Notes: generated from the letters alone by a model not told the origin. Shown: positions 1 to 52,914, numbered from the stretch's first letter. The stretch: 64,000 bases of DNA from an uncultured Acidobacteriota bacterium (GCA_963832495.1 CAWHUF010000005.1:1813766-1877765); one strand, 5' to 3'. A program made the numbers and translations.

Positions 1-384
1 CGCCTCCACCATCACCGAGCCGACGAGAGCCGGGTCGAGGTCCAGGCGGAGGCTCAGGTACGGCCGTTCCGCCGACGCCTCGACGACCTGGGCCACGATG
101 GGCAGCTCGACGGTGGCGAGCAGGTAATGGGCCGGGTCATAGCGGTAGCGTCTGTCCCCCAGCAGCACTTCCTTGCTCCCCTGTGCGATCACGCAGAGGG
201 AAGGCTTGGAGACTCCGTGGAGCGGCTCCGTAGGGTTGGAGAAGCGGTTGAGGTGGAGCCCCTTCAGCGCCTCTACCGTGCCGTCCTCCGGGTTGGCCCG
301 GGCGATGCGCTCCGCCAATTCCTCCTGGTGGGCGTAGGCCCGGTACGTTCCTTGCTCGAATCTCTGGTGGCGTGTCGAGTCCAT
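1..384 (-). CDS. AraC-family transcriptional regulator, N-terminal AraC_N-type domain (partial; continues past window start)
   Basis: Reverse-strand translation from ATG (rc of 382-384) reads MDSTRHQRFEQGTYRAYAHQEELAERIARANPEDGTVEALKGLHLNRFSNPTEPLHGVSKPSLCVIAQGSKEVLLGDRRYRYDPAHYLLATVELPIVAQ... with no stop to position 1. This matches the conserved N-terminal ligand domain of AraC-type regulators that sit divergent to reductase genes. The ORF is not in the supplied track because it runs off the window. Confidence 0.6.
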   Translation of the reverse strand, partial: MDSTRHQRFEQGTYRAYAHQEELAERIARANPEDGTVEALKGLHLNRFSNPTEPLHGVSKPSLCVIAQGSKEVLLGDRRYRYDPAHYLLATVELPIVAQVVEASAERPYLSLRLDLDPALVGSVMVEA

Positions 385-401
385 GCCTCTATCCTAGCCC
401 C

Positions 402-2999
<2,598 letters not shown>

Positions 3000-3020
3000 G
3001 GGGGAAAGGAGAAAACGATC

Positions 3021-3887
3021 ATGGCTAATATCATGGCTAATAAGAAAGTCTGGTTGATCACTGGAGCCAGCCGCGGCATGGGCGTCGATTTCGCCAAGGC
3101 CGCCCTGGCCGCCGGCCACGCGGTCGTGGCGACCGGCCGGAACACCGGCGCTGTCGGCAAGGCCGTGGGTGAGTCGGACGACCTGCTGGTCGTCAAGCTG
3201 GACGTCACCAGCCGTGCCGATGCCGAGGCGGCGGCGCAGGCCGCTGTCGACCGGTTCGGCCGTATCGACGTGCTGGTGAACAACGCCGCCAACTTTTATG
3301 CGGGCTACTTCGAGGAGCTGACGCCGGAGCAGATCGAGCGGCAGTTGGCGACGAGCCTCATCGGCCCGATGAACGTCACCCGCGCCGTCCTGCCAGTCAT
3401 GCGCAAGCAGCGCTCGGGGCACATCATCACGATCTCGTCGAGCGCGGGCCTCGTCGGCTTTGAGTTCTGTTCCGCCTACGCCGCGTCGAAGTTCGGCCTG
3501 GAGGGCTGGATGGAGTCGCTGCAGCCCGAGGTCGCGCCGTTCGGCATTACCACCACCATCGTCAACCCGGGTTTCTTCCGCACGGAGCTCCTCACGCAGG
3601 AGTCGACGGCCTATGCTGAGCCGTCCCTCGAGGATTACGCGGAGCGTACAGCGGCGCAGCAGGAGTGGTGGAAGGCCCAGAACGGCCAGCAGGGCGGCGA
3701 CCCGGCGAAGCTCGCCCAGGCGCTGGTCACGATCGCGAACGAAGAGCAGCCGCCGCGCCGCTTTATCGCCGGCGCCGACGCCATCGCCACCGCCGAGCAG
3801 AAAGTCGCCGATCTCAAGGCGCAGATCGAGGCCTATCGCGAGTTGTCCACGTCGCTCGCTATGGACGAGCCCGTGCTCGCCGGTTAA
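3021..3887 (+). CDS. SDR-family short-chain dehydrogenase/reductase
   Basis: TGASRGMG Rossmann motif, NNAA motif, and YAASK catalytic Y-x3-K. RBS GGGGAAAGGAGAA precedes the start. Confidence 0.85.
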   Translation: MANIMANKKVWLITGASRGMGVDFAKAALAAGHAVVATGRNTGAVGKAVGESDDLLVVKLDVTSRADAEAAAQAAVDRFGRIDVLVNNAANFYAGYFEELTPEQIERQLATSLIGPMNVTRAVLPVMRKQRSGHIITISSSAGLVGFEFCSAYAASKFGLEGWMESLQPEVAPFGITTTIVNPGFFRTELLTQESTAYAEPSLEDYAERTAAQQEWWKAQNGQQGGDPAKLAQALVTIANEEQPPRRFIAGADAIATAEQKVADLKAQIEAYRELSTSLAMDEPVLAG

Positions 3888-3899: not shown

Positions 3900-5026
3900 A
3901 TGCGAGCTCATAGGGAAAAGGAAATGAAACGTTTGCATACCTTCGCGCTGATCACGGCTGCGCTTATCACCTCCGCATGTGCAACCGCGAGTGGAAACAA
4001 CAAACCCGCGCCGCTGCTGATTCAGGAGCAAGGCAGCTTTGCGGCCGGCGGGACGGTCATCACCGCTCCCGGCACTTTCGACCCGATCAAACAGGGTGCG
4101 TACAACCCCGCCGGACCCGATACCGCGGGACAGACCTTGCACGGTGATCACGCCTATGTGTTCTACCAGGTCCCCGTCAATGCCAGAAAGCTTCCTCTCG
4201 TGTTCTGGCATGGCCACGGGCAGTCCGCCAAGACGTGGGAAACGACGCCCGACGGACGTGAGGGGTTCCAGAACATCTTCCTGCGCCGTCGCTTTCCGGT
4301 CTACCTGATCGATCAGCCACGGCGCGGCCGTGCAGCACGCAGCCGATGAACGTTGCGCCCACGCCCGACGAGCAGCTCTGGTTCGGTATCTTCCGCCTCG
4401 GTATCTGGCCGGACCTCTTCCCGGGCGTGCAGTTCTCACGCGATCCGAAGGCACTCGACCAGTTCTTCCGGCAGATGGTGCCGAACACCGGACCCTTCGA
4501 CATGGAAGTCAATTCCGACGCGGTTTCCGCACTCTTCGACCGGATCGGGCCGGGCATTCTCGTCACGCATTCCCAAAGCGGTACACTGGGCTGGCGCACG
4601 GCGATCAAGAACAGGAATGTCCGAGCCATCGTGTCTTATGAGCCGGGCGGCAACTTCTCTTTCCCGGAGGGCGAAGCCCCTGAGCCGATGACCCACGCCG
4701 GCGGCACGCTGAAAGCCGTCGAGGTGCCTCTGCCGGATTTCATGCTGCTCACGAAGATCCCGATCGTCGTTTACTACGGCGACAATATTGGCGGCAATAT
4801 TGCCGAGAAACCGAGCGTGAATCCAGGCCAGGACCAGTGGCGCGTCTTTTTTGCCATGGCAAAGCTGTGGCGCGATGCGGTAAACCGCCGGGGCGGCGAT
4901 GTCACCCTCGTGCATCTGCCGGAGCTCGGCGTTCGCGGCAATACGCACTTCCCCATGTCCGATCTCAACAATCTGCAGATCGCCGACCTTCTGTCGCAGT
5001 TTCTCGAGCAGAAGGGGCTGGACTGA
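3900..5026 (+). CDS. secreted alpha/beta-hydrolase-fold protein (lipase/esterase-like), split by one -1 frameshift near 4322-4345
   Basis: The N-terminal piece (3900..4349) carries a signal peptide ([20 protein letters not shown]), the HGHGQS oxyanion-like region, and [11 protein letters not shown]. The C-terminal piece (4346..5026, other frame) carries the nucleophile elbow HSQSG. The frame 2 reading is open for ~30 codons upstream of its ATG, so this is a single gene with an indel. Confidence 0.6.
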
Positions 5027-5042
5027 TCGCGGGAGGACAGAA

Positions 5043-5864
5043 ATGAGACTGCTCGCTACGGCCATCCTGTCACTTTCTCTTCTCACTTCCGCGTCAGCCC
5101 AGACCATCAGCATCGCACGAAGCGGCACGCAGCCCTCCCGGCCGGGACCGGCTGAAAACTTCACGGGTTCCGTGCGCGTCGATCCTTTGTTCCAGCCGAG
5201 CGATCCTGCGCGCGCGAGCGGCGGGCTCGTCACGTTCGAGCCCGGCGCCCGGTCGGCATGGCACAGCCATCCGCTCGGCCAGATCCTGATCGTGACGGCT
5301 GGCACCGGCCGTGTTCAGCAATGGGGCGGAGCGATCGACGAGATCCGGCAGGGCGACGTCGTTCGCATTCCGCCGGGCATCAAGCATTGGCATGGAGCAG
5401 CGCCAACGACGTCGATGGCGCACATCGCCATTGTGGAGCAGCTCGACGGCAAGAGCACCGATTGGATGGAAAAAGTCAGTGAGGAGCAATACAACATGCC
5501 AGTCCGTAAACAAGAGTCGTCCTCCGCTCCCAAGGCATCCGCGCAGAGCACGCAACCGACGCGGGCTCAACAATTGATCGGCGACTTCTCTCCGAAGCTG
5601 GTCGAGCTCACGGACAACGTGCTATTTGGCGATGTGTGGGCGCGTCCGCAACTCTCTCCACGCGACCGCAGCCTCGTGACCGTCAGCGCGCTGATCGCGA
5701 TGAACCGGCCGGATCAGCTCCGGTCTCACCTCGTCAGGGCGCGCGACAACGGCGTGACACAGGAAGAGCTGGTCGAGACGATTACGCACTTGGCGTTCTA
5801 CGCCGGCTGGCCTAGCGCAATAACCGCAGTCACCGTGGCCAAGGAAGTCTTCGAGGACAAGTGA
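5043..5864 (+). CDS. secreted cupin-domain / carboxymuconolactone-decarboxylase-family (CMD, AhpD-like fold) fusion protein
   Basis: Signal peptide [20 protein letters not shown]. The cupin core is [20 protein letters not shown]...[10 protein letters not shown]. The C-terminal CMD-family region is [31 protein letters not shown]...[11 protein letters not shown]. Confidence 0.7.
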
Positions 5865-5885: not shown

Positions 5886-6743
5886 ATGAATGAGGACTTC
5901 GACGAGACCTCCCCACCCGATCTGACGGAAGAACTGACGGAGGACCTGACGGAGGACGAACAGGCGCTGCTCGAGGAGATGCCGGCATTGACTGGCGTCG
6001 GGTCGACGCGGCGCACGTTCCTGGGACAGACCATTGCCGGCGGCCTCGGGTTTTTCGCCCTCGACCTGCTCGAGCTCGAGAGAGCGTTTGCGGCACTGGG
6101 TTCTCCCCCCGGTGCGGCGGCGGCCATGGCGCCCTCGGCGGAAAACCTTGTAAAAGTCGCGCTGAAGGTCAACGGCGCGGCGAAGACGCTGGAGATCGAT
6201 TCGCGCGTGGTGCTGCTCGACGCGCTGCGCGAACGGCTGGAGATGACCGGCACGAAGAAGGGCTGCGACCAGGGTCAGTGCGGGGCCTGCACGATGCTCG
6301 TCGACGGGCGGCGCGTCCTGTCGTGCCTGACGCTCGCCGCCTGCGTTGAGGGGCGGGAGGTCACGACGATCGAGGGGCTCGCGAAGGGGGATGAGCTCCA
6401 CCCGATGCAGGCGGCCTTCATCAAGTACGACGGCTTCCAGTGCGGATATTGCACGCCGGGGCAGATCTGTTCGGCCGTGGGCCTGCTCGAAGAGGCGCGC
6501 CGCGGCCACGTGAGCCACGTCACGGAAGACGTGACTGCGGTGACCGGGGCAGCGACCCGGCTCACGGACGACGAGATCCGCGAACGGATGAGCGGCAACA
6601 TCTGTCGTTGCGGGGCCTACCCGAAGATCGTCGCGGCCATCCAGGAGGTCCATTCAGGCAAGCAGACGGCCCAGACGTGGCGCTTCGCCGACGAGGAGCA
6701 ACTGGCCCGCGTGCGGAAGGAGGACGCCAGTGAGACCGTTTAA
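5886..6743 (+). CDS. paoA: (2Fe-2S)-binding subunit of a PaoABC-type periplasmic aldehyde oxidoreductase (xanthine dehydrogenase family), Tat-exported
   Basis: Twin-arginine motif STRRTFLG. Ferredoxin-like and four-helix 2Fe-2S cysteine clusters are present (GCDQGQCGACTMLVDGRRV; GFQCGYCTPGQICS; CRCGAYPKI). LKVNGAAKTLEIDSRVVLLDALRE closely parallels E. coli PaoA as recalled from memory. Confidence 0.8.
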   Translation: MNEDFDETSPPDLTEELTEDLTEDEQALLEEMPALTGVGSTRRTFLGQTIAGGLGFFALDLLELERAFAALGSPPGAAAAMAPSAENLVKVALKVNGAAKTLEIDSRVVLLDALRERLEMTGTKKGCDQGQCGACTMLVDGRRVLSCLTLAACVEGREVTTIEGLAKGDELHPMQAAFIKYDGFQCGYCTPGQICSAVGLLEEARRGHVSHVTEDVTAVTGAATRLTDDEIRERMSGNICRCGAYPKIVAAIQEVHSGKQTAQTWRFADEEQLARVRKEDASETV

Positions 6744-7735
6744 ATACGTGCGTGCGGCCGACCCGAATGCCGCGGCCAGCGCCGTCCTGGCGAACCCGCG
6801 GGCGAAGTTCCTGGCCGGCGGCACGAACCTCCTCGATCTGATGAAGGAGGACGTCGAGCGTCCGAACGAGCTGGTGGACCTCAACCGTTTGAAGCTGGAC
6901 GAGATCAAACCGCTCGCCGATATCAATCAGACGAGCGGCGGCGTCTCCATCGGAGCCTTGGCGACGAACACGGAAACCGCCAACCACCCGCTCATCCGCC
7001 AGAGCTATCCGCTCCTTACGCAGGCCATTGTCGCGGGCGCCTCGGCGCAGCTCCGCAATATGGCGACCAACGGCGGAAACCTCCTGCAGCGCACGCGGTG
7101 CCCGTACTTCTATGACACCGCGATGCCGTGCAACAAGCGGGAGCCCGGGACGGGATGCGGCGCTCGCGAAGGGCTCAACCGGATGCATGCGATTTTCGGC
7201 TGGAGCGAGAAGTGCGTGGCCACCTACCCGGGCGACATGGCGAACGCGCTCTACGCGCTCGACGCCGTGGTGAGGGTCCGGGGCGCGAACGGGCGTGAGC
7301 GTACGATCCCCATCGGCGATTTCCACCGCCTGCCGGGCGACACGCCGGAGAAAGACAACAATCTCCAGCATGGTGAGCTGCATCGTGGCGATCGATCTGC
7401 CGAAGTCGAATTTCGCGAAGAATTCCTATTACCTGAAGGTCCGCGACCGCGCCTCATACGCCTTCGCGCTCGTCGCGGTCGCCGCCGCGCTGGAGCTCGA
7501 CGGCGGCACGATCCGGCAGGCGCGTGTCGTGCTCGGTGGCGTGGCCCACAAGCCGTGGCGGAGCCGTGAGGCGGAAGCCGCACTCGCCGGAAAACGCGCG
7601 TCGGAAGAGAGCTTCCGGCAGGCAGCCGAGGCGGCGCTCGAGGATGCGAAACCTCTCGCTCATAACACTTACAAAGTCGAGCTGGGGAAGCGGGCCATCG
7701 TCCGCGCACTTATGCGTGCAAGCAAGCTGGCGTAG
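6730..7735 (+). CDS. paoB: FAD-binding subunit of PaoABC-type aldehyde oxidoreductase (CO dehydrogenase flavoprotein fold), split by a +1 frameshift near 7385
   Basis: FKYVRA..FLAGGTNLLDLMK is the FAD-binding motif. The reading frame switches at ...LQHGEL|IVAIDLPKSNF and continues as the ORF 7295..7735, which carries the typical C-terminal domain. It overlaps and abuts the neighbouring subunit genes. Confidence 0.7.
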
Positions 7736-7745
7736 GAGGATTCCA

Positions 7746-9928
7746 ATGCCGAGATACATAGGCAAAGAGATGAGCCGCGTCGACGGCGTGGCGAAGGTAA
7801 CGGGCAAGGCGAAGTACGCGGCGGAGTTCCGGGTGCCCAACCTCGCCTACGGCTTCATCGTGCTGGGAACGGTCGCGAAAGGCACGATCCAATCGATCGA
7901 CACGCGCGAGGCCGAAGGCGCGCCGGGCGTAGTCCGCGTTTTCACGCACCTGAACACCCCGAAGCTCCAGGCCCAGGAAGAGCGGGACAAGTCGTTCCGG
8001 GCCCTCCAATCCGAAAAAATCTTTTTCAACGCACAGCCCGTGGCCCTCGTCGTCGCCGAGACGTACGAGCAGGCGCGGTACGCGTCGCGCCTCGTGAAAG
8101 TCTCCTATAACGCGGAGCAGCACATGACCGATACGGAGGCCGTGCGGGAGAAGGCGCGCTCGCCCCGGCAGGGAGCGCCTCCGAAGCCTCGCGGCAATCC
8201 CGAGGAGGCGATGCGCATCGCGCCGGTGAAGGTCGAGGCCGAGTACCGCATCCCCATCGAGCACCACAACCCCATGGAGCCGCACGCGGCCATCGCCGTG
8301 TGGCAGGGCGACAAGCTCACGATCTTCGACAAGACGCAGGAAGTCTATGGCGTGCGCGAGCACCTGGCCTCGAGCTTCGGCGTCCCCGAGGAGAATGTGA
8401 ACGTTGTCTCGCCTTTTGTCGGCGGGGCGTTCGGATCGTCGCTGCGGCCGAACTACTATCCCGCGCTGACGGCGATGGCGGCCCGCGAGCTCAAGCGCCC
8501 GGTCAAGATCGTCTACACGCGCCGGCAGATGTTCACCGGCCACGGCTACCGCCCGTATACGATCCAGAAGGTCGCGCTCGGCGCGGAGCCTTCCGGAAAG
8601 CTCTCCGCGATGATTCATGAGGCGGTGCACAACACCTCCAGCTTCGAAGAGTTTTCGGACGGCACCACCGGGTTTCCGCGCCAGGTGTACGCCTGTCCCA
8701 ACCTCTACGCGCCGCTGAAGATCACCAGCACCGATCTCAATACTCCGACGTGGATGCGCGCGCCGGGGGCGGTCAGCGGCATGTTCGCGCTCGAATGCGC
8801 GATGGACGAGCTGGCCTATGCGGTGAAAATCGATCCATTGGAGCTGCGCCTCCTCAACTACGCCGAGGTGGACCCCGAGAGCGGGAAGCCGTGGTCGAGC
8901 AAGGCGCTGCGGGAGTGCTACCGGCTCGGCGCGGAGAAGTTCGGATGGAAGGACCGCAAATTCGAGCCCCGCTCGATGCGCGACGGGCGGTTGCTGGTCG
9001 GCTGGGGCATGGCCACGGGCGTGTGGGGCGCGTTCCAGAGGCCTGCCAGCGCCCGGATCAGTTTGCGTGCCGGCGGCACGGCACACGTCGTCAGCGCGAC
9101 CGCCGATATCGGCCCCGGCACCTACACGGTGATGACCATGATCGCCGCCGAGTACCTGGGGCTGCGGCCGGAGCAGGTGAAGTTCGAGCTCGGCGACACG
9201 AATTTCCCGCGGGCGCCGTCGCAGGGTGGCTCTCAGACGACTTCGAGCGTGGGCTCGGCCGTGTACGGCGCGGCCCTGGCCATGGGCGCGAAGCTCTTGT
9301 CGCTCGCGAACCAGGACGCAGGCTCGCCGCTGAAGGAAGCCTCCGCCTCCGACGTGGAGATGCTCGACGGCCGCCTGCAGCTCAAAAGCGATCCATCGCG
9401 TTTCGTTACTGTTTCTGACGTCATGAAGCGGAACGGCCTCACGGAGGTCACCGAGACGTTCGAATCGCGACCGTCGAAGGAGCGCGAGAAATACGCGCTG
9501 TTGGCGCACGGCGCGCAGTTCATCGAGGTGAAGGTGGACCCCGACCTCGGCACCGTCCGCGTCACGCGGGCCATCGAGGTCACGGCCTGCGGTAAGATCA
9601 TCAATCCCAAGGCGTCGCACAGCCAGGAGATCGGCGGCGTGGTCTGGGGCATTGGCATGGCGCTTCAGGAGGCCACGGAGATCGATCACCGCTACGGGCG
9701 GATCATGAACCCGGACCTCCAGCACTACCATGTCCCTGTCAACGCGGACGTTCACGAGATCGAGACGCTGTTCGTCGAGGAGGACGATACGATCGTCAAC
9801 CCGCTCGGCGTCAAGGGCATGGGGAGCTCGGGATGGTAGGCATCCCGGCGGCGATCGCGAACGCCGTGTTTCACGCCACGGGCCGGCGCATCCGGGATCT
9901 GCCGATCACGCCGGACAAGCTGCTGTAA
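7746..9928 (+). CDS. paoC: molybdopterin-binding large subunit of PaoABC-type aldehyde oxidoreductase; -1 frameshift in a G-run near 9822
   Basis: RBS AGGAGGA lies 6 nt upstream of the ATG at 7746 (MPRYIGKEMSRVDGVAKVTGKAKYAAEF). Aldehyde-oxidase/xanthine-dehydrogenase a/b hammerhead and Mo-binding domains are present throughout. The supplied ORF ends GMGSSGW*, but the adjacent frame continues ELGMVGIPAAIANAVFHATGRRIRDLPITPDKLL*, which is the conserved C-terminus. This is consistent with one G deleted from GGGGG. Confidence 0.75.
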
Positions 9929-13985: not shown

Positions 13986-14594
13986 TCAGCTTTCGTGCCG
14001 CTTCACCCACTGGAGCGGCACCCCCGTCTTTCCGGCCTCGTAGACCAAGGGATCGGGCTTGATGCCGAAGCCGTCCGCCATGCGGGGGAAGTAGTTGAAG
14101 ATGCTGATGAGGTGGCCGATCTCCAGGAGGCCTTGATCGTCGAAGCCGAGGTCGCGCAGGGGCTGCCAGTCGGCGGCCGTCATGGCCGTGGGCGTCAGGG
14201 TCAGCTTCTCAGCGACGGTACAGAGGGCGCGCTGGCGCGGGGTCAGGTCCGGCAGTTCCTTCCAGCGGTGCTGCTTGATGGCCTCGACCAGCTTCGGATC
14301 GCCTTCCTCGACACGCAGAAACTCTGCGTGAGACTGCGTTCAGTACTCGCAGGACTGGGCCGCCGAGGCGACGGCGGCAACCATCTCCCGCTCGGCGCGG
14401 TCGAGCGCTCCCGGTGCGAACATGATCTCGTAGAAGAGGTCCCGCATGGCCGGGCCAATGCGTGGATGGGCGGCGAGGAGCCGGCCCATGCCGGAGATGT
14501 AGCCGAAGTTGTAAGAGGGCTTGCCGCCGGCTGGCCGGGAGCGCAGCTCTTCGTCGGTGGGCAGGGTGATGAAGGGCTTCTGAGGATCGGGCAT
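13986..14594 (-). CDS. AhpD/CMD-family 'peroxidase-related enzyme' with in-frame UGA at codon 85 (C-E-Y-U, candidate selenocysteine); otherwise a single uninterrupted 202-codon frame
   Basis: Codon-by-codon minus-strand translation gives ...AAVASAAQSCEY-[TGA at 14340-14342]-TQSHAEFLRVEEGDPKLVEAIKQHRWKELPDLTPRQRALCTVAEKLTLTPTAMTAADWQPLRDLGFDDQGLLEIGHLISIFNYFPRMADGFGI.... The TGA sits exactly where the second Cys of the family's redox CxxC motif is expected, and the frame stays open on both sides. The supplied track splits it into 14340..14594 and 13986..14183. RBS GGAGA is upstream of the ATG at 14594. Confidence 0.6.
14312..14330 (-). promoter_or_regulatory. bacterial SECIS-like hairpin immediately downstream of the in-frame UGA
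   Basis: mRNA reads UGA-acgcagucu-CACGCAG-aguuu-CUGCGUG. This is a 7-bp perfect stem starting 10 nt after UGA with a 5-nt apical loop containing GU. Placement matches the bSECIS hairpin position known from fdhF-type elements. Confidence 0.45.
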
Positions 14595-14612
14595 GGAGAT
14601 CTCCCTTGAATC

Positions 14613-16855: not shown

Positions 16856-17070
16856 TCCTCATATGAAGAGAACTATCAAACGTCCTCACAAGACATAGTT
16901 GCCGCAGGGCACGGAAAGGGGACAAGAAAGAACCAGGAAAAGTTCTCCTTCCCAGTAGGTTCCAAAATCGCGAATTTTTGTCACCAGCCTGCGACTGACA
17001 CTGTCACCACGGCTCCCTATCCTCGATCTGCGTCCGGGAACCCGGTTCAGGATTCGTGGAGGAGTGCCGA

Positions 17071-18972
17071 ATGTCCATCGTTCTGGAAGATCTGACCAAG
17101 CGCTACGGGGGGCACCCGGTGGTCAACGGCGTCTCCATCGAGGTGGGGGACGGCGAGCTGTTCGTTCTGCTGGGGTCTTCCGGGAGCGGCAAGAGCACCC
17201 TGCTGCGCATGATCGCGGGCCTCTCGGAGGTGGACGCCGGCCGCGTGCTGCTCCACGGCAAGGACGTCACGGACCTGCCGCCCGCCAAGAGGGGGGTGGG
17301 CTTCGTGTTCCAGAGCTACGCCCTGTTCCGCGGCATGTCGGTGGCCGAGAACGTGGAGTTCGCCCTGGCCGTACGCGGCGTGCCGGCGGAGCAGCGGCGG
17401 CGCCGCCGGGAGGAGCTCCTGGAGCTGGTGGGGCTCGCGGGCCTGGGCGGCCGGATGCCGCGCCAGCTCTCGGGCGGCCAGCAGCAGAGAGTGGCCCTTG
17501 CGCGCGCCCTGGCCCATCAGCCGGAGGTGCTGCTGCTGGACGAGCCGTTCGGCGCGCTCGACGCCAAGGTGCGGCTCGAGCTGCGGCGGACCATACGGGA
17601 GATCCAGAGAGAGCTGGGCATTACGACGCTTTTTGTCACCCATGACCAGGAAGAAGCTTTCGAGCTGGCGGACCGGCTGGCCGTGCTGAGCTTCGGCCGG
17701 CTGCTGGAGTCCGGGCCCCCGGACGAGCTCTACCTGCGGCCGGAGACGGAGTTCGTGGCCACCTTCCTGGGTACGGCGAACCTGATGGTAGGGGAGGCCA
17801 CGGCGGAGGGGGTGCGGCTGGGGCCGGTGCAGTTCCCCCTGGGCACCCGCCAGGAGGTCACGGAAGGAGCCGGCCCGCGGCGGGTGCAGGTGCTTTTCCG
17901 GCCGGAGGACGTGGCCGTGCGCGATACCCCCGAAGCTGCCGAGAACGCGACCTTCCCGATCCTGGGGCAGGCCGTGGTGGAGCAGCGCTCGTTCGTGGGC
18001 TCCTTCGAGCGGCTGCGGCTGCGCCTGCCCCCGCTGCCGGGCGTGCGGTCCATCGCGCCCGCGGTGCCGTTCGGCCGGGACGAGATCTGGATCGAGGCCA
18101 CCCGTCCGCAGGACCAGGCGCGCCGCTTCCCCCTCCGTCCGGGCGATTCGACGTGGGTGGGTGTGCAGCGGGTCCACGCGCTGGTCCATCCCGGGCTGCG
18201 GTTCCTGATGCTGACCAACGGTACCCCGCAGTCGCCGCGGTCGAAAGCGGCGCTCACCTTCGGCGGCGAGCTCGCCCGCCGGTCCCAGGCCCGCGTGGCC
18301 CTGCTGGGGCAGGCGGACGGTGAAAACGCAGAGAGGTCTCTTCAGGACGCCAAGGAGTTGCTGGGCACCGGCATCGCGGCCGTCGAGTCCCGCCTGACCG
18401 CGGGTCCGCCGGCTGAAGCCGTGGCCGAAGAGGTCTCGCGCCGGCCGTGCGACCTGGTGATCCTCTCCCTGCCGCCCAAGGAGGGGCTGGAGATGGCGGA
18501 GGAGGTCCTCGGGGCGGGCCATCACCACCTCCTGCTCGTGCCTCAGGATGCGGCAACCAGGGTCCCCGCGCGCCTCCTCATCTGCGTGGCCGTGGGCGAG
18601 CCGGGCAAGGAGGACGTCTCCTTCACAGGCCGCCTCGCCCGCCACCTGGGGGCCGAGGCCACGATCCTGACCGTGCTGCCCGAGGTGGCCCGGGGCGGTG
18701 TGGCCGAAGCGCCGGCCGAGCGGTTCCTGGCCGGCAGCGCCCGCACGCTCCGCCGCATGGGCGTGCCGGTCGACACCCGCATCCGCTACGGCGCCGCGCG
18801 CGAGGAGATCGTGGCGCAGCTTGCCGAAGGGGGGCACGACCTCCTGGTGCTGGGCGCGCCGCTGCCGGGCCGCGATGGGCGGATCGATCTCGGCGGCTTC
18901 GTGGGCAAGCTGCTGCCGCAGGTGGCGCACCTGCCCGTGCTGATCGTCCACTCCCCGGAGGCCGTGTCGTGA
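17071..18972 (+). CDS. cysA: sulfate/thiosulfate ABC transporter ATP-binding protein (CysA-like, with TOBE domain) fused to two C-terminal universal-stress-protein (UspA) domains
   Basis: Walker [10 protein letters not shown], signature [15 protein letters not shown], Walker [12 protein letters not shown], then a TOBE-like beta region, then two Usp-like alpha/beta segments (...[12 protein letters not shown]...HHLLLVP; ...[15 protein letters not shown]...LPVLIVHS). It heads the sulfate-uptake gene cluster. Confidence 0.8.
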
Positions 18973-19030
18973 ACCCTCACCCCCTACCCCCTCTCCCGTC
19001 CCCTCCCTCACCCCCTCACCGGGAGAGGGG
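18973..19030. repeat. GC-rich REP-like palindromic element, copy 2
   Basis: accctcaccccctaccccctctcccgtcccctccctcaccccctcaccgggagagggggaaagaag, immediately after the cysA-usp stop. Confidence 0.5.
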
Positions 19031-19327
19031 GAAAGAAGAATTGCGCAAAATCGAGCACGAGCTGGGGCTCGCTCTGTCCGAAATCCGCTACGGCTCGATC
19101 GAGATCGTCATCCAGGACTCGCGGGTGGTGCAGATCGAGCGGCGGGAAAAAGTCCGTTTCGACCGGGAGGGGAGAGAGGGGAGATGAGCGGATCTCTCCC
19201 GGTTGTTTTCGATCCTACCCGCACGGCGGCCGGCCGGACGACCGGAGGCCCCGAGGCGGCTCTTTTTTCTTCTCTTTCGTTCGCGAGCGACCGGACCTCC
19301 GGAGACGCGGCCTTTCCGGAGACCGAG

Positions 19328-20725
19328 ATGAGATACGAAGTCGTCACGTTGTGCGCCCTGCTGGCTCTGCCGGCGGCATGGGCCCAGGAGCCGGCGCCCG
19401 CCGAGCCGGTGCAGGAAGAGCAGGCCCAGGAACCCGAGCAGCCACCGACCGTGGAGGAGCGGCTGGACGAGATCGACCAGAAGATCCGCGTCCTCGACCG
19501 CAAGACCGAGCTCGACAAGGAGGCCGCGGCCGAGAAGGCGAAGACCGCCGGCCAGGCCACGGCCGGCAAGGATGGTTTCAACCTCAAGTCCGCCGACGGC
19601 AACTTCCAGCTGAAGCTGCGCGGCTACGTGCAGCTCGACGGCCGGTTCTTCCAGAGCGACGACCAGCGGCCGGGGACCGATACCTTTGCATTGCGCCGGG
19701 TGCGGCCGATCCTCGAAGGCACCGTCTACAAGATCTTCGACTTCCGCATCATGCCCGATTTCGGCGGCGGCCAGACCGTGCTCCAGGACGCCTATCTGGA
19801 AGCCCGGTTCAACCCGGCCTTCCGGGTGCGGGCCGGCAAGTTCAAGCCGCCCGTGGGCCTGGAGCGCCTGCAGTCCGGCACGGACCTGCTGTTCGTGGAG
19901 CGGGCCTTCCCCACGAACCTGGTGCCCAACCGCGACCTCGGCATCCAGCTCGGGGGTGACGTGGCGGGCGGCGTCGCCAACTGGGCCGTGGGCATGTTCA
20001 ACGGTGTGCTCGACGGCGGCAGCGCCGACGGCGATACCAACGACGAAAAGGATTACGCGGCGCGCATCTTTTTCCAGCCGTTCATCGCGGGGAGCGGTCC
20101 GCTCAAGAACCTGGGCTTCGGCGTGGCCGGGAGCACGGGCGAGCAGTCGGGCACGGTGACCGCGCCCAACCTGCCGGCGTTCCGCACACCGGGCCAGCAG
20201 ACGTTCTTCTCCTACCGCACGGACGGCACGGCGGCCAACACCGTGATCGCCGACGGCGACCGCACCCGCTTCTCGCCGCAGGGGTATTTCTACTCCGGCC
20301 CCTTCGGCCTGCTGGCCGAGTACGCGACCTCCAAGCAGGCGGTGCGGCGGGGCACGGACGCGCGCGACCTGGAGCACAAGGCCTGGCAGGTGGCGGCCTC
20401 GTGGGTGCTCACGGGCGGTGAGCCCACCTTCCGGTCGGTCAATCCCAAAAAGGTTTTCGATCCGGCGGCCGGCACCTGGGGTGCTTTCGAAATCGCCGCG
20501 CGGTATCACAAGCAGGAGCTCGACGACGAGACCTTCCCGGCCTTCGCCAACATCGCCAGCTCAGCCTCGGCGGCCGAAGCCTGGGCGGTGGGCTTCAACT
20601 GGTATTTCAACAAGAACCTGCGCCTGCTGTTCGATTACGAGACCACCAGCTTCGAGGGCGGAGCCACGAGCGGCGACCGCGAGGATGAAAAGATTTTGTT
20701 CAGCCGCTTCCAGGTTGCCTTCTAG
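19328..20725 (+). CDS. phosphate-selective porin O/P (OprO/OprP) family anion porin with N-terminal coiled-coil
   Basis: Signal peptide [21 protein letters not shown], an acidic coiled coil ([41 protein letters not shown]), then a beta-barrel with alternating aromatic pattern ending ...[10 protein letters not shown] (C-terminal Phe). Position between cysA and sbp suggests a sulfate/anion porin. Confidence 0.7.
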
Positions 20726-20744
20726 GAAAGGAAACTGTTCAATC

Positions 20745-21746
20745 ATGAAGACCCGTTTCGCTCTACCGCTGCTGACCTTGCTGCTACTGGCCGCCCCGGC
20801 CATAGCGCAGGTCAAGCTGCTCAACGTCTCCTACGATCCGACGCGCGAGCTGTACCAGGAAGTCAACACCGCTTTCGCCAAGCACTGGAAGGCCACCAAG
20901 GGCCAGGACGTCACCGTTCAGCAGTCGCACGGCGGCTCGGGCAAGCAGGCCCGCTCCGTGATCGACGGCCTGGAAGCCGACGTGGTGACTCTCGCGCTCG
21001 CCTACGACGTGGATGCCGTGGCCAAAACCGGGCTGATCGCCAAGAACTGGCTGACGCGCCTGCCCAACAACAGCGCCCCGTATACTTCGACCATCGTTTT
21101 CCTCGTGCGCAAGGGCAACCCCAAGAAGATCAAGGACTGGGACGACCTCGCACGGCCGGGCGTGTCGGTGATCACTCCCAATCCCAAGACTTCCGGCGGC
21201 GCGCGTTGGAACTATCTCGCGGCCTGGGGCTATGCCCTGCGCAAGCTCGGCAACGACCCGGCCAAGGCGCAGGACTTCGTCAAGCGGATCTTCAAGAACG
21301 TGCCGATCCTGGACACCGGTGCCCGCGGCGCGACCGTGACCTTCGTCGAGAGGGAGATCGGTGACGTGCTGATCGCCTGGGAGAACGAGGCCCTGTACTC
21401 CGTCAAGGAGCTGGGCGACAAGGGGGAGTTCCAGATCGTGGCGCCCTCCCTGAGCATCCTGGCCGAGCCGTCCGTGGCCGTGGTGGACAAGGTGGCCGCC
21501 AAGCGCAAGACGGTCCAGGTGGCGACCGCCTATCTCCAGTTCCTCTACACGCCCGAGGGTCAGGAGATCGCGGCCAAGCACTACTACCGGCCGCGCAACC
21601 AGAACGTGGTGGCCAAGTACGCGCAGCAGTTCCCCAAGGTGACGCTCTTTACCATCGACGAGGTCTTCGGCGGCTGGGCCAAGGCGCAGAAGACCCACTT
21701 CGCCGACGGCGGCGTGTTCGACCAGATCTACGGGGCGGGACGCTAG
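20745..21746 (+). CDS. sbp: sulfate ABC transporter substrate-binding protein (Sbp/CysP family)
   Basis: Signal peptide [22 protein letters not shown], then [69 protein letters not shown], the conserved Sbp N-terminus. RBS GGAAAGGAAA. Confidence 0.85.
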
Positions 21747-22673
21747 GTGAGGCCGGCCGAGGTGGAGATTCTAGAGAAGGACGCGGCAAGCCTCCCTTCG
21801 CCGTTGCCGGTCTCGGCGCGCCGCAAGGGGAGCCGGTTCCGGGGGGGCAGCGTCCTCCCCGGCTTCGGCCTCTCTCTGGGCTTCACGCTGCTCTACCTCG
21901 GCCTGATGATCCTGATCCCTCTCTCCACCGTCTTTTTGAAGACGGCCACGATGACGTGGAGCGCCTTCTGGGAGACGGTCACCGGCCCCCGGGCTCTGGC
22001 GGCCTATCGCCTGAGCCTCGGAGCGGCTTTCGTGGCGGCGTCGCTCAACCTCGTCTTCGGGGTGCTCGTGGCCTGGGTGCTCGAGCGCTACAGCTTCCCC
22101 GGGCGGAAGCTGGTGGACGCCATCGTGGACCTCCCCTTCGCTCTGCCCACGGCGGTCGCGGGCATCGCGCTCGCCACCCTCTATGCGAAGAACGGCTGGA
22201 TCGGCCAATGGCTCGACCCGCTGGGAATCGAGGTCGCTTACACCCGGCTCGGCGTGGTGGTGGCCCTCACCTTCATCAGCCTGCCGTTCGTGGTGCGTAC
22301 GGTGCAGCCGGTGATCGGAGATCTCGATCCCGAGGTGGAGGAGGCCGCGGCCAGCCTCGGCGCCGGCCGCCTGCAGACGTTCCGGCGGGTGATCCTGCCC
22401 GAGCTCGTGCCCGCCGCCCTGGCCGGCTTCGTGATGGCTTTCGCCCGCGCCATGGGCGAGTTCGGCTCGGTGATCTTCATTGCCGGCAACATGCCGATGC
22501 ATTCGGAGATCACGCCGCTTCTGATCATGATCAAGCTCGAGCAGTACGACTACGCGGGCGCCACGGCGATCGCGCTCGTATTCCTGATCTTTTCCTTCAC
22601 GCTCCTCCTGTTGATCAATTTCCTGGCCTGGCGCCGGGGACGGCGGCTGCGGACCGCGGAAGGAGAAGGCTGA
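21747..22673 (+). CDS. cysT: sulfate ABC transporter permease CysT(CysU)
   Basis: Six-TM permease with EAA-like loop ([20 protein letters not shown]). Start overlaps/abuts the sbp stop. Confidence 0.8.
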
Positions 22674-22674
22674 T

Positions 22675-32600: not shown

Positions 32601-34532
32601 ATGTCGAAGGAGCTGGAGCAAATCAGCGAGCTGGAATCGAGGAAAGTGGCGGAGGCTTCTCGCGAGACCGAGTGGAAGCAGCCGAGCTTCCTGCGCGAGA
32701 TGTTCCTCGGCAACTTCCGGCTGGACCTGATCCATCCGTATCCGCAGCCGGAGCAGGAGCGCTCCGAGTTCGCCGCTTTCTACAACGCGATCAAAGAGTT
32801 TCTTCGTGACCAGGTGGACCCGGTCCAGATCGACACCACGGGCGAGTACCCGGAGCACGTGGTGGACGGCCTGCGCAAGCTGGGCGCCTTTGGCATGAAG
32901 ATCCCGAAGAAATACGGTGGCCTGGGCTTCACCAACACCGAGTACCAGAAGGTAATGCTGCTGCTGGGCTCGATCGACGGCAACCTCTCGGCGCTGCTGT
33001 CGGCCCACCAGTCGATCGGCGTGCCGCAGCCGCTCAAGCTGTTCGGCTCGGACGAGCTGAAGAAGAAGTACCTGCCGCGCTGCGCCGCGGGCGAGATCTC
33101 TGCCTTTGCGCTCACCGAGCCGCAGGTGGGATCCGACCCGGCCCGGCTGATGACGGACGCCGAGAAGACGCCCGAAGGGGACTACATCCTCAACGGCGAG
33201 AAGCTCTGGTGCACCAACGGCACGATCGCCAAGCTCCTAGTGGTCATGGCCCGCGATCCCAAGACCAAGAAGATCAGCGCCTTCGTGGTGGAGACGGCCT
33301 GGCCGGGCGTCAAGGTGGAGCACCGGTGCCACTTCATGGGCCTCCGGGCGCTGGCCAACGCCGTGATCACGTTCAAGAACGTGCGGGTGCCGGCTGGGAA
33401 CCTGATCGGCAGCGAGGGCAAGGGGCTCAAGATCGCCCTCACGACCCTGAACGACGGCCGCCTCTCGATCCCCAATGGATCGGTGGGCTCGGCCAAGCTC
33501 TGCCTGGAGATCTGCCGCAAGTGGGCGAGCGAGCGGGTGCAGTGGGGCAAGCCGGTGGGCAAGCACGAGGCGATCTCCCACAAGATCGCGGACATGGCGG
33601 CCAAGACGTTCGCCATGGAGTCGATCGCGGCGCTGGCGACCGCGATGTCCGATCAGGGCGGCTACGACATCCGCCTGGAGGCCGCGGCCTGCAAGGAGTG
33701 GAACTCGGCGCGCACCTGGGAGATCGTGGACGACACCATGCAGATCCGCGGCGGCCGGGGCTATGAGACAGAGACGTCGCTCGCGGCCCGCGGCGAGGAG
33801 CCGATCGGCGTCGAGCGGATGATGCGCGACTACCGCATCAACAAGATTTTCGAGGGCTCGTCCGAGATCATGCACCTGTTCATGGCCCGCGAGGCCGTGG
33901 ACAAGCACCTGCAGGTGGCCGGCGCCATGATCGATCCCGAAAAGAGCGTGGCGGAGAAGCTGGCCGAGCTGCCGAAGATGACGAGCTTCTACGCCTCCTG
34001 GTATCCGACCCGGTGGCTGGGCTGGGGCCAGTGGCCGCGCTACCAGGAGTTCGGCGAGCTGGCGCAGCATCTGCGCTTCTGCGAGCGGAACACCCGGCGG
34101 CTGTCGCGCCAGATCTTCCACGGCATGCTCGTCCACCAGGGCAAGCTGCAGCACAAGCAGGCATTCCTGTTCCGCCTGGTGGACATCGCCAACGAGCTGT
34201 TCGCCATGGCGGCCTCGGTCTCGCGGGCGCACGCCATGGTCGAGGCGGGACACCCCGAGGCGGCCAACGCCGTGGAGCTGGCGGACCTCTTCTGCCGCGG
34301 TTCGCGGCGGCTGGTCCTGCGGCTGTTCCACGAAGTGTGGGCCAACGACGACGTCCGCAAGTACAAGGTGGCGCTCAAGGTGCTGGACGGTAAGCACGCG
34401 TGGGTGGAGGATGGCATCCTCAGCCTGAAGGATCGCGGTATCCACGGGGGTGACCTGAAGCCCGAGGCCGTGGGCAGCGGCAAGGCCGAGCCCGTTGCCG
34501 TGCCGCGGGCGCGGCCGGTCGGCACGCACTGA
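32601..34532 (+). CDS. long (~640 aa) acyl-CoA dehydrogenase family protein with extra C-terminal helical domain
   Basis: [14 protein letters not shown] precedes ATG at 32601 (MSKELEQI...). ACAD N-terminal, middle beta and C-terminal alpha domains (catalytic-base region ...IRGGRGYETE...). Extended C-terminal domain as in FadE-type enzymes. Confidence 0.8.
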   Translation: MSKELEQISELESRKVAEASRETEWKQPSFLREMFLGNFRLDLIHPYPQPEQERSEFAAFYNAIKEFLRDQVDPVQIDTTGEYPEHVVDGLRKLGAFGMKIPKKYGGLGFTNTEYQKVMLLLGSIDGNLSALLSAHQSIGVPQPLKLFGSDELKKKYLPRCAAGEISAFALTEPQVGSDPARLMTDAEKTPEGDYILNGEKLWCTNGTIAKLLVVMARDPKTKKISAFVVETAWPGVKVEHRCHFMGLRALANAVITFKNVRVPAGNLIGSEGKGLKIALTTLNDGRLSIPNGSVGSAKLCLEICRKWASERVQWGKPVGKHEAISHKIADMAAKTFAMESIAALATAMSDQGGYDIRLEAAACKEWNSARTWEIVDDTMQIRGGRGYETETSLAARGEEPIGVERMMRDYRINKIFEGSSEIMHLFMAREAVDKHLQVAGAMIDPEKSVAEKLAELPKMTSFYASWYPTRWLGWGQWPRYQEFGELAQHLRFCERNTRRLSRQIFHGMLVHQGKLQHKQAFLFRLVDIANELFAMAASVSRAHAMVEAGHPEAANAVELADLFCRGSRRLVLRLFHEVWANDDVRKYKVALKVLDGKHAWVEDGILSLKDRGIHGGDLKPEAVGSGKAEPVAVPRARPVGTH

Positions 34533-34561
34533 GGCCTTCCCCTCTGGGGTAGGATGGCGCC

Positions 34562-35536
34562 GTGCGCGCCATCCTACCCACCGATCCTTCTGATTCTCCC
34601 AATCCTCAAGCAGGTGACCTCCCCGACCCGGTGCCCGGGCCGGGCGAGGTTCTCGTGGCCGTCGAGGCCGCGGGCCTCAATCACGCCGACCTCCACCAGC
34701 TCCGGGGGCAATATCCGCCGCCGCCCGGCGAGAGCCCGGTGCCGGGCCTGGAGTGCGCCGGCGTCGTGCTGGAGTCGGAGAAGGGAAGCCCCTGGCGGCC
34801 TGGCACGAGGGTCATGGCGTTGGTGGGAGGCGGTGCCCAGGCCACCCGCGCCGCCATTCCCGCGGGACAGCTCATGCCCATACCGGACAACCTGTCGCTG
34901 ATTGAGGGAGCCGCCATCCCCGAGGCCGGCCTCACGTCCTGGGTGAACCTGGTGGTGGAAGGGGGGCTCCAGGCGGGGGAGACGGTGCTGGTGACCGGGG
35001 CCACGGGGGGCATGGGGAGCTTCGCCGCGCAACTCGCCCGCGAGCTGGGGGCACGGGTGCTGGCGGCCGGCCGCAGCCGCGAGCGGCTGGAGCTGCTGCG
35101 CGGGTTGGGGATCGGGGAGGTCTGCCTCGAAGGCGCGAACCTGCCCAGCCAGGTGCGGGACGCCACGGGCGGCCGGGGCGTGGACCTCGTCCTCGACTTC
35201 ACAGGCGGACCCGAGATCGGCAGCCATCTGGCGGCGCTCGCCTATCGCGGGCGGCTGGTGCTGGTGGGGCTGGTGAGCGGCCGCAAGGCGGAGGTGGACC
35301 TGGGGCCCATCCTCAGCCGGCGCCTCAAGGTGATCGGCTCGGTGCTGCGCGCCCGTCCGCGGGAGGAGAAGGCGCGGCTCACGGCGGACTTCGCGGCCTT
35401 CGCCCTGCCGCGCCTGCGCGACGGCCGCCTGCGTCCCGTGGTGGACCGCACCTTCCCCCTGGAGCGGGCCGCCGAGGCCTACAAGGCCCTGGAGCGGGGC
35501 GGCGTGTTCGGCAAGGTCATTTTGACGATGGCGTGA
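34562..35536 (+). CDS. qor: NADPH:quinone oxidoreductase / zinc-independent MDR-family enoyl reductase-like protein
   Basis: GEVLVAVEAAGLNHADL...; cofactor-binding motif VLVTGATGGMGSFAAQLARELGARVLAAGR; ends ...ERGGVFGKVILTMA. Confidence 0.75.
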   Translation: MRAILPTDPSDSPNPQAGDLPDPVPGPGEVLVAVEAAGLNHADLHQLRGQYPPPPGESPVPGLECAGVVLESEKGSPWRPGTRVMALVGGGAQATRAAIPAGQLMPIPDNLSLIEGAAIPEAGLTSWVNLVVEGGLQAGETVLVTGATGGMGSFAAQLARELGARVLAAGRSRERLELLRGLGIGEVCLEGANLPSQVRDATGGRGVDLVLDFTGGPEIGSHLAALAYRGRLVLVGLVSGRKAEVDLGPILSRRLKVIGSVLRARPREEKARLTADFAAFALPRLRDGRLRPVVDRTFPLERAAEAYKALERGGVFGKVILTMA

Positions 35537-37283
35537 CGCCTCCGCCCACTTCCACCTTCCGGCTCAGGTAGGAGGTGGCGGCGCCGAGCTCGTCGCGCAC
35601 CGCGACCGCCACGGTCTGGGCACCGGCCGGCATCTGGAGCGTCAGGGTGTAGAGGTAGAACTGGCCCAGGGCACCCAGGACCTGCTTGCGGGGGATCTGG
35701 ATGGGCACGGGCACCTGCCGCGGGGGCGAGGTGCCGCCCTTGTCGTCGCCGGTGATGACCAGCAGGCGGAGCTTGCCTTCGTAGGAACCCTGCCGGTTCA
35801 CGACGGTCAGCCGGAACATGGGGATCCGGAGGCGGACGGGCACCGTGTAGCTGCCGTCCTCCGACCGGGTGGCATCGCCGATCTCCATGGTGATCTCCAT
35901 GGGGTTGTCCTCAATGCCGTGGACGAGCGCCGCGAGGGTGCGGTCCACGACCCTCTCCGCGAGCGGCTTGTCGCGGTAGCCCTGGCGGTGGCGGACCTTG
36001 AGGCCGGCTTTCCTGACCTTGACCTCGAGCTGGTGCTGGCGGCCGTCGCCCGTGTGGGCGGGCGTGTAGCCCAGGGAGTAGTAGACGGAGAAGTCCTCCC
36101 GCATGCGGCCGAGGTCGGGGAGGAAGTCGTTGACGTTCAGGATGGCCCGGCCGCCCGTGTCCGCGGCCATGGCGGAGAGCGAATTCTGGACGTTGGTGGT
36201 CTGCACCTGGTGGACCGTCATGAGCTGGAGCGCCCGCTCGCCGGGCTCGATCTCCGCGTCGGCCGAGGCGAGTCCCCGGAGGCCGCTGGCCTGGAGGGTG
36301 TAGAAGGTCACCCGGTTGGCGTTGGCGTGCGCCGTGAGATCCGCAAAGCGGTCGGCGACGCCATGCTTCTGGGCGTCGATGAGCGCCTGCTGGGCCGGGT
36401 ATCCGGCGCTCGCGGGCGCCCGGCCCGCCGTGGCGAACGGATCGACGACGACGAGCCCGGAGCTCCCCGCGCCGCCGCCGCAGACTTCGTAGACCACCTG
36501 GTAGAGCTCCTCGCCGGGGGTCATGGGGAGGCCGTCGCTGACGTAGAGCACAGCCTTGCGGCCCGGGATGCCAGCCAGCGAATTGACCAGGAACTTGAGG
36601 GCCCCGAGAGTCCGCAGGACCTCGTTGCGGGTCTGCTGGGCGTAGGTCTCGATGGGCGCCATCATCGCGTAGCTGCAGGGGTCGAGCGCGTTGATCGAGA
36701 ACATGGTGCGCAAGGCCGACCGCCGGTCCTGGTCCAGCTGGATGCCGCCGGGGGTGGCGACCTTCTCGATTTCCTGGAGGGTCTTGTCGAGGGCCGCCGG
36801 ATCGCCGGTGAAGGGCTGGCGCACCTTGAGGCCCAGGTCGTGGGTGGCGAGCATCACCCGGTCGAGGGGGCGGACGTTCCGGGCGAGGAACTGGCGGATC
36901 TGGTTCACGGCGCGCGTGCGGTTCTCCGGCCGCAGGTGGGCGTTGTCGACCAGCACCACCAGGTTCAGCCAGTCGTCCGGGATGGCCTCGGAGGCCGCCG
37001 CCGGAGCGGCCGGAGCCGCGGGCTCCGTGGCAGCGGGCTGAGAGGGGCTGTCCGGAACGGTCCGCGCCACGGCGGCGAAGTTGGTGATCGCGACCGGCTT
37101 GCCGTCTTCCAGGACCTCGAAGTCTTCCTTCCTGAGGCCGGTCACCCGCTTGCCGTCCTTGTCGGTGACGTAGACCTCGACGTTGACGACATTGACCTCC
37201 ACGACATCGCCGAAGGATTGGGAAGCGGCGGGCGCCGGAGGCCAGGTGAACAACAGGAGCAGGAGAGCGAGCCGGATTTTCAT
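35517..37283 (-). CDS. VWFA-related acidobacterial-type domain protein (TIGR03436-like), paralog 1 of 4
   Basis: Signal peptide MKIRLALLLLLFTWPPAPAASQ, then the family-defining N-terminus FGDVVEVNVVNVEVYVTDKDGKRVTGLRKEDFEVLEDGKPVAITNF, a VWA-like alpha/beta body, and a C-terminal beta region. The supplied ORF start (37403) is an N-terminal over-extension. Confidence 0.75.
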   Translation of the reverse strand: MKIRLALLLLLFTWPPAPAASQSFGDVVEVNVVNVEVYVTDKDGKRVTGLRKEDFEVLEDGKPVAITNFAAVARTVPDSPSQPAATEPAAPAAPAAASEAIPDDWLNLVVLVDNAHLRPENRTRAVNQIRQFLARNVRPLDRVMLATHDLGLKVRQPFTGDPAALDKTLQEIEKVATPGGIQLDQDRRSALRTMFSINALDPCSYAMMAPIETYAQQTRNEVLRTLGALKFLVNSLAGIPGRKAVLYVSDGLPMTPGEELYQVVYEVCGGGAGSSGLVVVDPFATAGRAPASAGYPAQQALIDAQKHGVADRFADLTAHANANRVTFYTLQASGLRGLASADAEIEPGERALQLMTVHQVQTTNVQNSLSAMAADTGGRAILNVNDFLPDLGRMREDFSVYYSLGYTPAHTGDGRQHQLEVKVRKAGLKVRHRQGYRDKPLAERVVDRTLAALVHGIEDNPMEITMEIGDATRSEDGSYTVPVRLRIPMFRLTVVNRQGSYEGKLRLLVITGDDKGGTSPPRQVPVPIQIPRKQVLGALGQFYLYTLTLQMPAGAQTVAVAVRDELGAATSYLSRKVEVGGGVTPSSK

Positions 37284-37293
37284 GGGGTCTTTC

Positions 37294-39198: not shown

Positions 39199-39207
39199 GG
39201 CTTCCTC

Positions 39208-41120: not shown

Positions 41121-41146
41121 GGCAAAATCTCCCTCAGGGACTGACC

Positions 41147-52910: not shown

Positions 52911-52914
52911 GCCC

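Follow-up and report, generated by a model that had tools for sequence, protein, structure and literature searches.

A probable selenocysteine codon and bacterial SECIS-type hairpin in an AhpD-like (TIGR01926) gene of a Thermoanaerobaculia-like acidobacterium

AhpD-like proteins of COG2128/TIGR01926 with a CxxU motif constitute an established selenoprotein family (PMC1088965, PMC2398784, PMC9312934, PMC13188914). The family was among the new selenoprotein families found in a 2005 analysis of the Sargasso Sea, with 27 sequences, ranked as the fourth most abundant selenoprotein family in GOS, with 299 sequences, and is named "AhpD-like protein, TIGR01926, CxxU" in current reviews. In AhpD proteins with Cys at both positions of the motif, a five-residue proton relay has been described for Mycobacterium tuberculosis AhpD (MtAhpD; Glu118, Cys130, His132, Cys133, and His137) and for Pseudomonas aeruginosa PA0269 (Glu36, Cys48, Tyr50, Cys51, and His55; PMC3141380). 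A knockout of DR1765 is sensitive to H2O2, and the CxxC cysteines of this protein are needed for full complementation (PMC8945050). Selenocysteine (Sec) decoding has been documented in Acidobacteria/Acidobacteriota (PMC1794560, PMC12013277, PMC13582414), and our search of the accessible literature for Thermoanaerobaculia together with selenocysteine found no paper.

We analyzed a 64-kb stretch of DNA, here called the window, for which a sequence-only reading had proposed a selenoprotein gene on the minus strand. Translation bore out the continuous frame on which this proposal was built: positions 14594 to 13986 form one 202-codon frame plus a terminal stop, and the sole internal stop is a TGA at codon 85 (Table 1). 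The peptide around this codon is AAQS-C82-E-Y-U85-T-Q-S-H89-AEFLR, which appears in a plain translation as ...AAQSCEY*TQSHAEFLRVEE..., and the ATG start agrees with the N-termini of aligned homologs. As had also been noticed, the mechanical ORF list breaks the locus into an 84-aa piece (14340 to 14594) and a 65-aa piece (13986 to 14183). When we scanned the window for more genes with an in-frame TGA, every candidate proved to be an ordinary gene end with a neighbor in the same frame behind it. On the evidence presented below, we consider it highly probable that a single gene at this locus encodes an AhpD-like thiol/selenol oxidoreductase of 202 residues, an enzyme of antioxidant type for which the UGA at codon 85 would be decoded as Sec by means of a bacterial SECIS (bSECIS) hairpin.

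Table 1. Coordinates of the AhpD-like gene and of its sequence elements in the window
Feature	Position	Strand	Evidence
AhpD-like (TIGR01926) selenoprotein gene, complete, 202 codons including predicted Sec85, plus terminal TGA	13986..14594	-	Translation, profile match, purifying selection 5' and 3' of the TGA, orthologs
Shine-Dalgarno-like AAGGGAG, 6 nt 5' of ATG 14594..14592	14601..14607	-	Read from sequence
Glu70 codon, proton-relay Glu, 12 residues before the first Cys	14385..14387	-	100% conserved in 78 aligned genes; PMC3141380
Cys82 codon TGC, first residue of C-x-x-U	14349..14351	-	Cys in 78/78 aligned genes
In-frame TGA, predicted Sec85, second CxxC position	14340..14342	-	TGA in the window gene and 80/80 fetched loci (best 80 of 173)
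9-nt spacer ACGCAGUCU between UGA and stem	14331..14339	-	Length invariant
bSECIS-type hairpin, overlapping codons His89-Val95	14312..14330	-	MFE, bSECIS criteria, pairing, frozen synonymous sites
His89 codon, His of CxxUxxxH in the proton relay	14328..14330	-	Invariant in aligned genes; PMC3141380
True gene terminator, also TGA	13986..13988	-	Translation

The assignment to the AhpD/CMD family held in profile searches. With U replaced by C, the protein scored 120.9 bits against TIGR01926 ("peroxidase-related enzyme," COG2128; curated cutoff, 81.8 bits) across residues 28 to 182 and profile positions 24 to 177 of 178, and PF02627 (CMD) also matched with U read as C. The closest solved structures were 2oyo (E = 7.6e-27) and 6k40 (E = 3.2e-26), over about 165 to 180 residues, 3c1l, 2prr, and 2pfx matched as well, and homology to these structures predicts an all-helical AhpD/CMD fold for the window protein. 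The two closest structures, DR1765 (DrAhpD, 6k40) and its Deinococcus geothermalis homolog (2oyo), share the E...CxYCxxxH layout but, unlike the window protein, carry Cys in place of Sec as the second motif residue and consequently have no SECIS. In alignments, the second Cys of their CxYCxxSH motifs (CLYCAVSH in 2oyo and CVYCAVSH in 6k40) falls at the TGA column, as does a Cys in the Cys-form homolog P0002 (CFYCTQSH). Because Cys-form homologs and solved structures both have Cys at this column, the TGA occupies the position of the second Cys of CxxC, as the sequence-only reading had it.

The predicted relay of Glu70, Cys82, Tyr84, Sec85, and His89 has the same spacing as the relays of MtAhpD and PA0269, which have Cys where the window protein would have Sec and are only distant in sequence (PA0269, E = 2e-08). 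Among 78 aligned genes, the relay Glu, Cys, and His were invariant and the Tyr was 91% conserved. In AhpD, the residue that acts as nucleophile toward AhpC is the second Cys (Cys133), and the placement of Sec at the second CxxC position would fit this role. Within the relay, Sec85 would replace the second Cys of CxxC and cycle between a selenol/thiol state and a Cys82-Sec85 selenenylsulfide, reducing peroxides or an oxidized peroxiredoxin-type partner, with both the substrate and the reductant presumed. By analogy with DR1765 and MtAhpD only, the protein may have peroxidase or peroxiredoxin-reductase activity. Membership in NF041238 (AhpD_rel_CFYUT; the Sargasso Sea "hypothetical protein 1") was ruled out at 54.5 bits against a cutoff of 175. 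That family shares the C-[FE]-Y-U-T motif type and an AhpD-related domain, but its proteins have 357 residues, and only the C-terminal 125 positions (216 to 340) align with the window protein.

The genes around the locus provided no clue to a redox partner, as neither ahpC nor another peroxiredoxin gene was present among the window genes scanned; an AhpC-reductase role is therefore unsupported by gene context. A DUF1015 gene lies upstream on the same strand, with its stop codon 18 nt before the AhpD-like gene, and the downstream neighbor is a convergent gene for a secreted FN3/lamin-tail protein. The adjacency to DUF1015 was found only in the nearest relatives (L002 and L014), and the other neighbors were clade specific. 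A conserved operon partner was thus ruled out, and no functional partner can be inferred from neighbors that vary by clade.

A pattern scan with one genome per species yielded 173 relatives, and we fetched the best 80 of these 173 loci. The closest (74 to 89% identity) came from metagenome-assembled genomes (MAGs) of Thermoanaerobaculia and other Acidobacteriota, the nearest being a member of Thermoanaerobaculia at 89%, so that the window most likely belongs to the class Thermoanaerobaculia. The remaining fetched loci were from Chloroflexota/Dehalococcoidia, Binatia, Actinomycetota, Thermodesulfobacteriota, and some other groups, so that the reference genomes behind the 80 loci represent at least five phyla. 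TGA was present at the same column in every one of the fetched loci (80/80, the best 80 of 173), and the frame 3' of the TGA was always open for 112 to 123 codons. Relative to the nine nearest loci, dN/dS was 0.12 to 0.34 downstream of the TGA and 0.09 to 0.24 upstream. Two or three paralogs occurred in several MAGs (L028/L030/L043 and L020/L041), and every copy had both the TGA and the hairpin.

This conservation bears on the possibility that an error in sequencing or assembly, or a recent nonsense change from TGC or TGT, produced the TGA in what is really a Cys-type gene or a pseudogene. The TGA is one base from either Cys codon, and the window has possible frameshifts at other sites, a hint that its sequence is imperfect. 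On the other side, TGA stands at this column in 80 of 80 independent related loci (the best 80 of 173), and the window carries the exact hairpin of the Sec type, whereas the Cys forms use other codons and lack the hairpin. We therefore regard an error or a fresh nonsense mutation as very unlikely.

The automated annotation of relatives resembled that of the window, as the sequence-only reading had anticipated. Public protein sets contained N-terminal fragments ending in ...QDCEY, C-terminal fragments starting with MSHAEFLR, or proteins with a W at the TGA column (P0001, P0004, P0008, and P0012). The W in these gene calls could be taken to mean that the UGA is read as Trp, or otherwise as Gly or Cys, through a reassigned code or a suppressor, with the hairpin merely stimulating read-through. 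However, the W is an annotation artifact: the DNA underlying P0001 is TGA, and translation of its gene with table 11 differs from the deposited protein. TGA is also the real terminator of 61 of the 81 family genes, including the window gene, so UGA is a normal stop in these genomes and an internal UGA needs a local signal. Moreover, the position is that of a redox Cys, where Sec and Cys are a classic pair, and the hairpin agrees with the bSECIS consensus of the SelB type. Taken together, these observations leave decoding as a standard residue with very little probability and favor insertion of Sec.

In two metagenomic loci, the family appeared in tandem. L088 (JGI 3300079576 Ga0619411_00040812, 2138 to 3415, plus strand) is a single unbroken frame of two tandem AhpD-like units with TGAs at 2405 and 3068; both lie in CHY-U-TQSHAEFLR and have the same hairpin after them, and L089 has the same arrangement. 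These look like genes for a tandem AhpD-like protein that is about 425 residues long and would contain two selenocysteines, an arrangement that explains the proteins composed of a C-terminal half plus an N-terminal half (P0013 and P0017 to P0019).

The perfect 7-bp hairpin that had been noticed downstream of the UGA was confirmed. Its 5' arm CACGCAG (14330 to 14324), loop AGUUU (14323 to 14319), and 3' arm CUGCGUG (14318 to 14312) begin at the 10th nucleotide after the UGA, and in an alternative fold the loop A and the last loop U pair to give an 8-bp stem with a 3-nt loop. Published bSECIS criteria (PMC13188914, Fig. 2) are four in number: an apical loop of 3 to 9 nt on an upper stem of 4 to 16 bp, a G at loop position 1 or 2 (pattern N1-G-[G/U]-N-N2), a UGA-to-loop spacing of 16 to 37 nt, and a minimum free energy (MFE) of -7.5 kcal/mol or lower. 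The window hairpin conforms to all four, with a 5-nt loop, a 7-bp stem, the loop A-G-U-U-U, a spacing of 16 nt (the 9-nt spacer plus the 7-nt arm) that was the same in 81 of 81 genes, and an MFE of -10.8 kcal/mol; 80 of the 81 Sec forms had an MFE of -7.5 kcal/mol or lower. Like the Escherichia coli fdhF-type SECIS, it is a stem-loop in the coding region after the UGA, with a small loop and G-U at loop positions 2 and 3. It differs in having no sequence likeness past this consensus, and its spacing is at the lower limit of the published range.

The hairpin was conserved in orthologous loci. All seven pairs were present in 77 of 81 genes and six pairs in the other 4, and the loop was AGUUU in 77 of 81 and AGUUC in 4. 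Across 73 distinct sequences, 99.2% of the cells were paired; the changes that preserved pairing were nine to wobble pairs and one compensatory change from A-U to G-C (L079), and four changes broke pairs. In a covariation analysis, the observed score was reached by 49 of 500 shuffles, a nonsignificant result because the stem hardly varies and leaves the test without statistical power. The thermodynamic z-score of the 60 nt after the UGA (-0.83, in sequence of 66% GC) was not significant either. Searches of Rfam returned no match in the whole window at gathering scores and, at E values up to 10, only noise on the opposite strand in the region from 14150 to 14450; Rfam does not seem to cover this hairpin element, so that the lack of a match carries no information. 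Within the window, 21 of 1,413 TGAs on both strands (1.5%) precede a perfect Watson-Crick hairpin of at least 7 bp that obeys the bSECIS rules for position and loop G. On its own, the hairpin is thus only modest evidence, but its occurrence beside a TGA that lies at the CxxC column in an open, conserved frame, together with conservation in 80 of 80 loci (the best 80 of 173), is far beyond chance.

Synonymous sites within the hairpin provided a further line of evidence. Codons +4 to +9 after the TGA (His-Ala-Glu-Phe-Leu-Arg) were fixed at 92 to 100% on CAC GCA GAG TTT CTG CGT, whereas equally conserved residues elsewhere in the gene used four to six codons each. Some of the hairpin codons are atypical for GC-rich genomes: outside the hairpin, Ala, Phe, and Arg favor GCC, TTC, and CGC, and the hairpin has the GC-poor GCA, TTT, and CGT. 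Synonymous diversity was 0 to 0.14 in the hairpin codons versus a median of 0.48 at 45 other conserved codons (Mann-Whitney p = 6.8e-5, indicative only, as the sequences are phylogenetically related).

The Cys forms of the family served as a natural control. L083, L084, and L085 (P0002, P0007, and P0005, respectively) have TGC at the Sec column and encode the identical HAEFLR peptide with GCC, TTC, CTC/CTT, and CGG/CGT codons, without a stem, and their MFEs were -3.1, -3.1, and -1.4 kcal/mol, respectively, compared to -10.8 kcal/mol in Sec forms. The stem was therefore present with TGA and absent with Cys (Fisher p = 1e-5, likewise indicative only given related sequences and just three Cys forms). 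At the level of sequence comparison, this control settles the tie between the hairpin and the UGA. It also bears on the idea that the hairpin is kept for another reason, such as mRNA stability or the codon preference of the peptide, and lies after the TGA by coincidence. In favor of coincidence, HAEFLR also occurs in Cys forms, so that the protein fixes two-thirds of the hairpin nucleotides, and the covariation test is without power. Yet the stem is made by third-codon positions that are frozen in TGA forms only and relaxed in three of three Cys forms, and the fixed GCA, TTT, and CGT oppose codon usage in the rest of the gene. We assign coincidence a nearly negligible probability.

These results favor a model for Sec decoding in which the hairpin 9 nt past the UGA, with its 7- to 8-bp stem and AGUUU loop, would act as a bacterial SECIS and bring SelB-GTP-Sec-tRNA(Sec) to the ribosome paused at the UGA, leading to insertion of Sec at codon 85 in place of termination. 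The terminal UGA of the same gene, which has no hairpin, would terminate translation.

One family member had a Gly codon at the Sec column. L087 (ENA ERZ27253378 k141_2157277, 261 to 893, plus strand; P0003) has GGA and mostly retains the hairpin in a weakened state (CGT to CGC; MFE, -7.6 kcal/mol), and it looks like a recent Sec loss or an inactive variant. An ORF with an EF-Tu domain 2 beside L087 was considered as SelB and ruled out, as it encodes a small standalone protein.

We also searched for Sec machinery. ARAGORN found no tRNAs in the 64-kb window, hence no tRNA-Sec, and no tRNA-Sec in 60 related loci. Searches by tblastn with E. coli SelA, SelB, and SelD gave no match in the window and 85 loci, and Pfam annotation of about 40 window genes revealed no Sec-machinery gene. 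Since the window is about 1% of the genome, the lack of sel genes in it is expected and uninformative. ARAGORN did call an unusually long (89-nt) "tRNA-Thr (cgt)" in L039 (2359 to 2447, plus strand), with its anticodon at position 30; it lies some 550 nt 5' of the AhpD-like gene in this Acidobacteriota MAG and was not called as tRNA-Sec.

A further alternative is that Sec decoding has been lost in the source genome, leaving a recently dead or relic gene that yields only an 84-residue fragment. The window contains no Sec machinery, it shows signs of decay or assembly indels elsewhere, for example, in a DUF885 gene split over two frames, and relic states occur in the family, for example, in L087 with its GGA and decaying hairpin. 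Against a relic stand the perfect hairpin and the 117 open codons downstream of the TGA, which have a dN/dS of 0.17 versus L001, as well as the retention of the gene in close relatives, some with several paralogs; missing sel genes in 64 kb, roughly 1% of a genome, do not weigh on either side. We consider a relic unlikely and Sec decoding the better account. Because the TGA and the open frame downstream of it are conserved in related loci, the presence of Sec machinery in the source genome is a strong inference.

Several other features of the window were recorded. A second CMD-domain gene (4899 to 5864, plus strand) encodes a secreted cupin-CMD fusion without a CxxC motif. Immediately downstream of this gene is a molybdenum hydroxylase cluster (5886 to 9839, plus strand) with three subunits (2Fe-2S, FAD binding, and MoCo binding) of the CO/xanthine dehydrogenase type. 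A cluster at 17056 to 23544 (plus strand) encodes an ABC ATPase/universal stress protein fusion, a phosphate-selective porin O/P, an SBP_bac_11 solute-binding protein, and two permeases; it looks like an uptake system for oxyanions of the sulfate or molybdate type, and any tie to selenium oxyanion uptake is pure speculation. Transposase genes lie at 470 to 1705 and 23639 to 25033 (both plus strand), one of the IS4 family and one of the DDE_Tnp_1/DUF772 type, and the protein encoded at 26495 to 30502 (minus strand) has 1,335 residues and numerous RTX calcium-binding nonapeptide repeats. Six large ORFs with strong coding signal occur in a row at 35517 to 43062 (minus strand) with almost no Pfam matches, namely, weak VWA_2 matches alone in two of the six.

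The DUF885 gene occupies two frames, 51130 to 51996 (plus strand; profile positions 1 to 158) and 51927 to 52910 (plus strand; profile positions 209 to 532), and its split represents a frameshift, a pseudogene, or an assembly indel. Nearby, the match of a DUF2891 ORF (49266 to 50324, minus strand) is confined to the last 90 profile positions. A perfect hairpin of 12 bp, GGGTAGGATGGCGC...GCGCCATCCTACCC, at about 34559 to 34591 (plus strand) follows the stop TGA (34530 to 34532) of an acyl-CoA dehydrogenase gene, and a similar hairpin, GGGTAGGG...CCTACCC, at about 52887 to 52919 (minus strand) follows a minus-strand TGA (52950 to 52952). Either terminators or a small repeated element may account for these two hairpins.

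Compared with the AhpD-like selenoprotein family described from the Sargasso Sea and GOS ("AhpD-like 1"), the window gene belongs to the same HMM family, has CxxU with the predicted Sec in the second position, and carries a bSECIS-type hairpin directly downstream. There is no difference in kind; the window copy is Thermoanaerobaculia-like, and most of the published counts come from marine metagenomes. The locus is thus an unannotated member of a selenoprotein family catalogued since 2005, and the sequence-only reading was right that Sec-containing AhpD-like proteins were already known. Existing knowledge of selenoproteins is left unchanged by it. The practical yield is a correction of annotation, both for this gene, which would otherwise be called as two fragments or a pseudogene, and for the many fragments and mistranslations of the family in public protein sets. 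In addition, one peptide encoded by two codon sets, with a stem only where UGA is present, offers a natural experiment on a SECIS overprinted on coding sequence.

What is mildly new is the lineage (Thermoanaerobaculia), a single SECIS sequence that is invariant across phyla, the dominance of Sec forms in the clade (all 80 of the best-matching genomic loci), and the tandem two-Sec fusions in metagenomes. We tentatively suggest, as a possibility that we hold with less than even confidence, a near-obligately Sec-using clade of TIGR01926 in soil and sediment that spans at least five phyla, including Thermoanaerobaculia, Binatia, Dehalococcoidia, Actinomycetota, and Thermodesulfobacteriota among its phyla and classes, and that has an essentially invariant 19-nt SECIS coencoded with HAEFLR, multiple paralogs in some genomes, and two-Sec fusions. 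The source organism, a Thermoanaerobaculia-like acidobacterium, is a probable selenium user. If the suggested clade is real, it would mark Thermoanaerobaculia as a Sec-decoding class so far undescribed as such, and one SECIS/peptide module would have persisted unchanged across very different SelB backgrounds, either by spread or by constraint.
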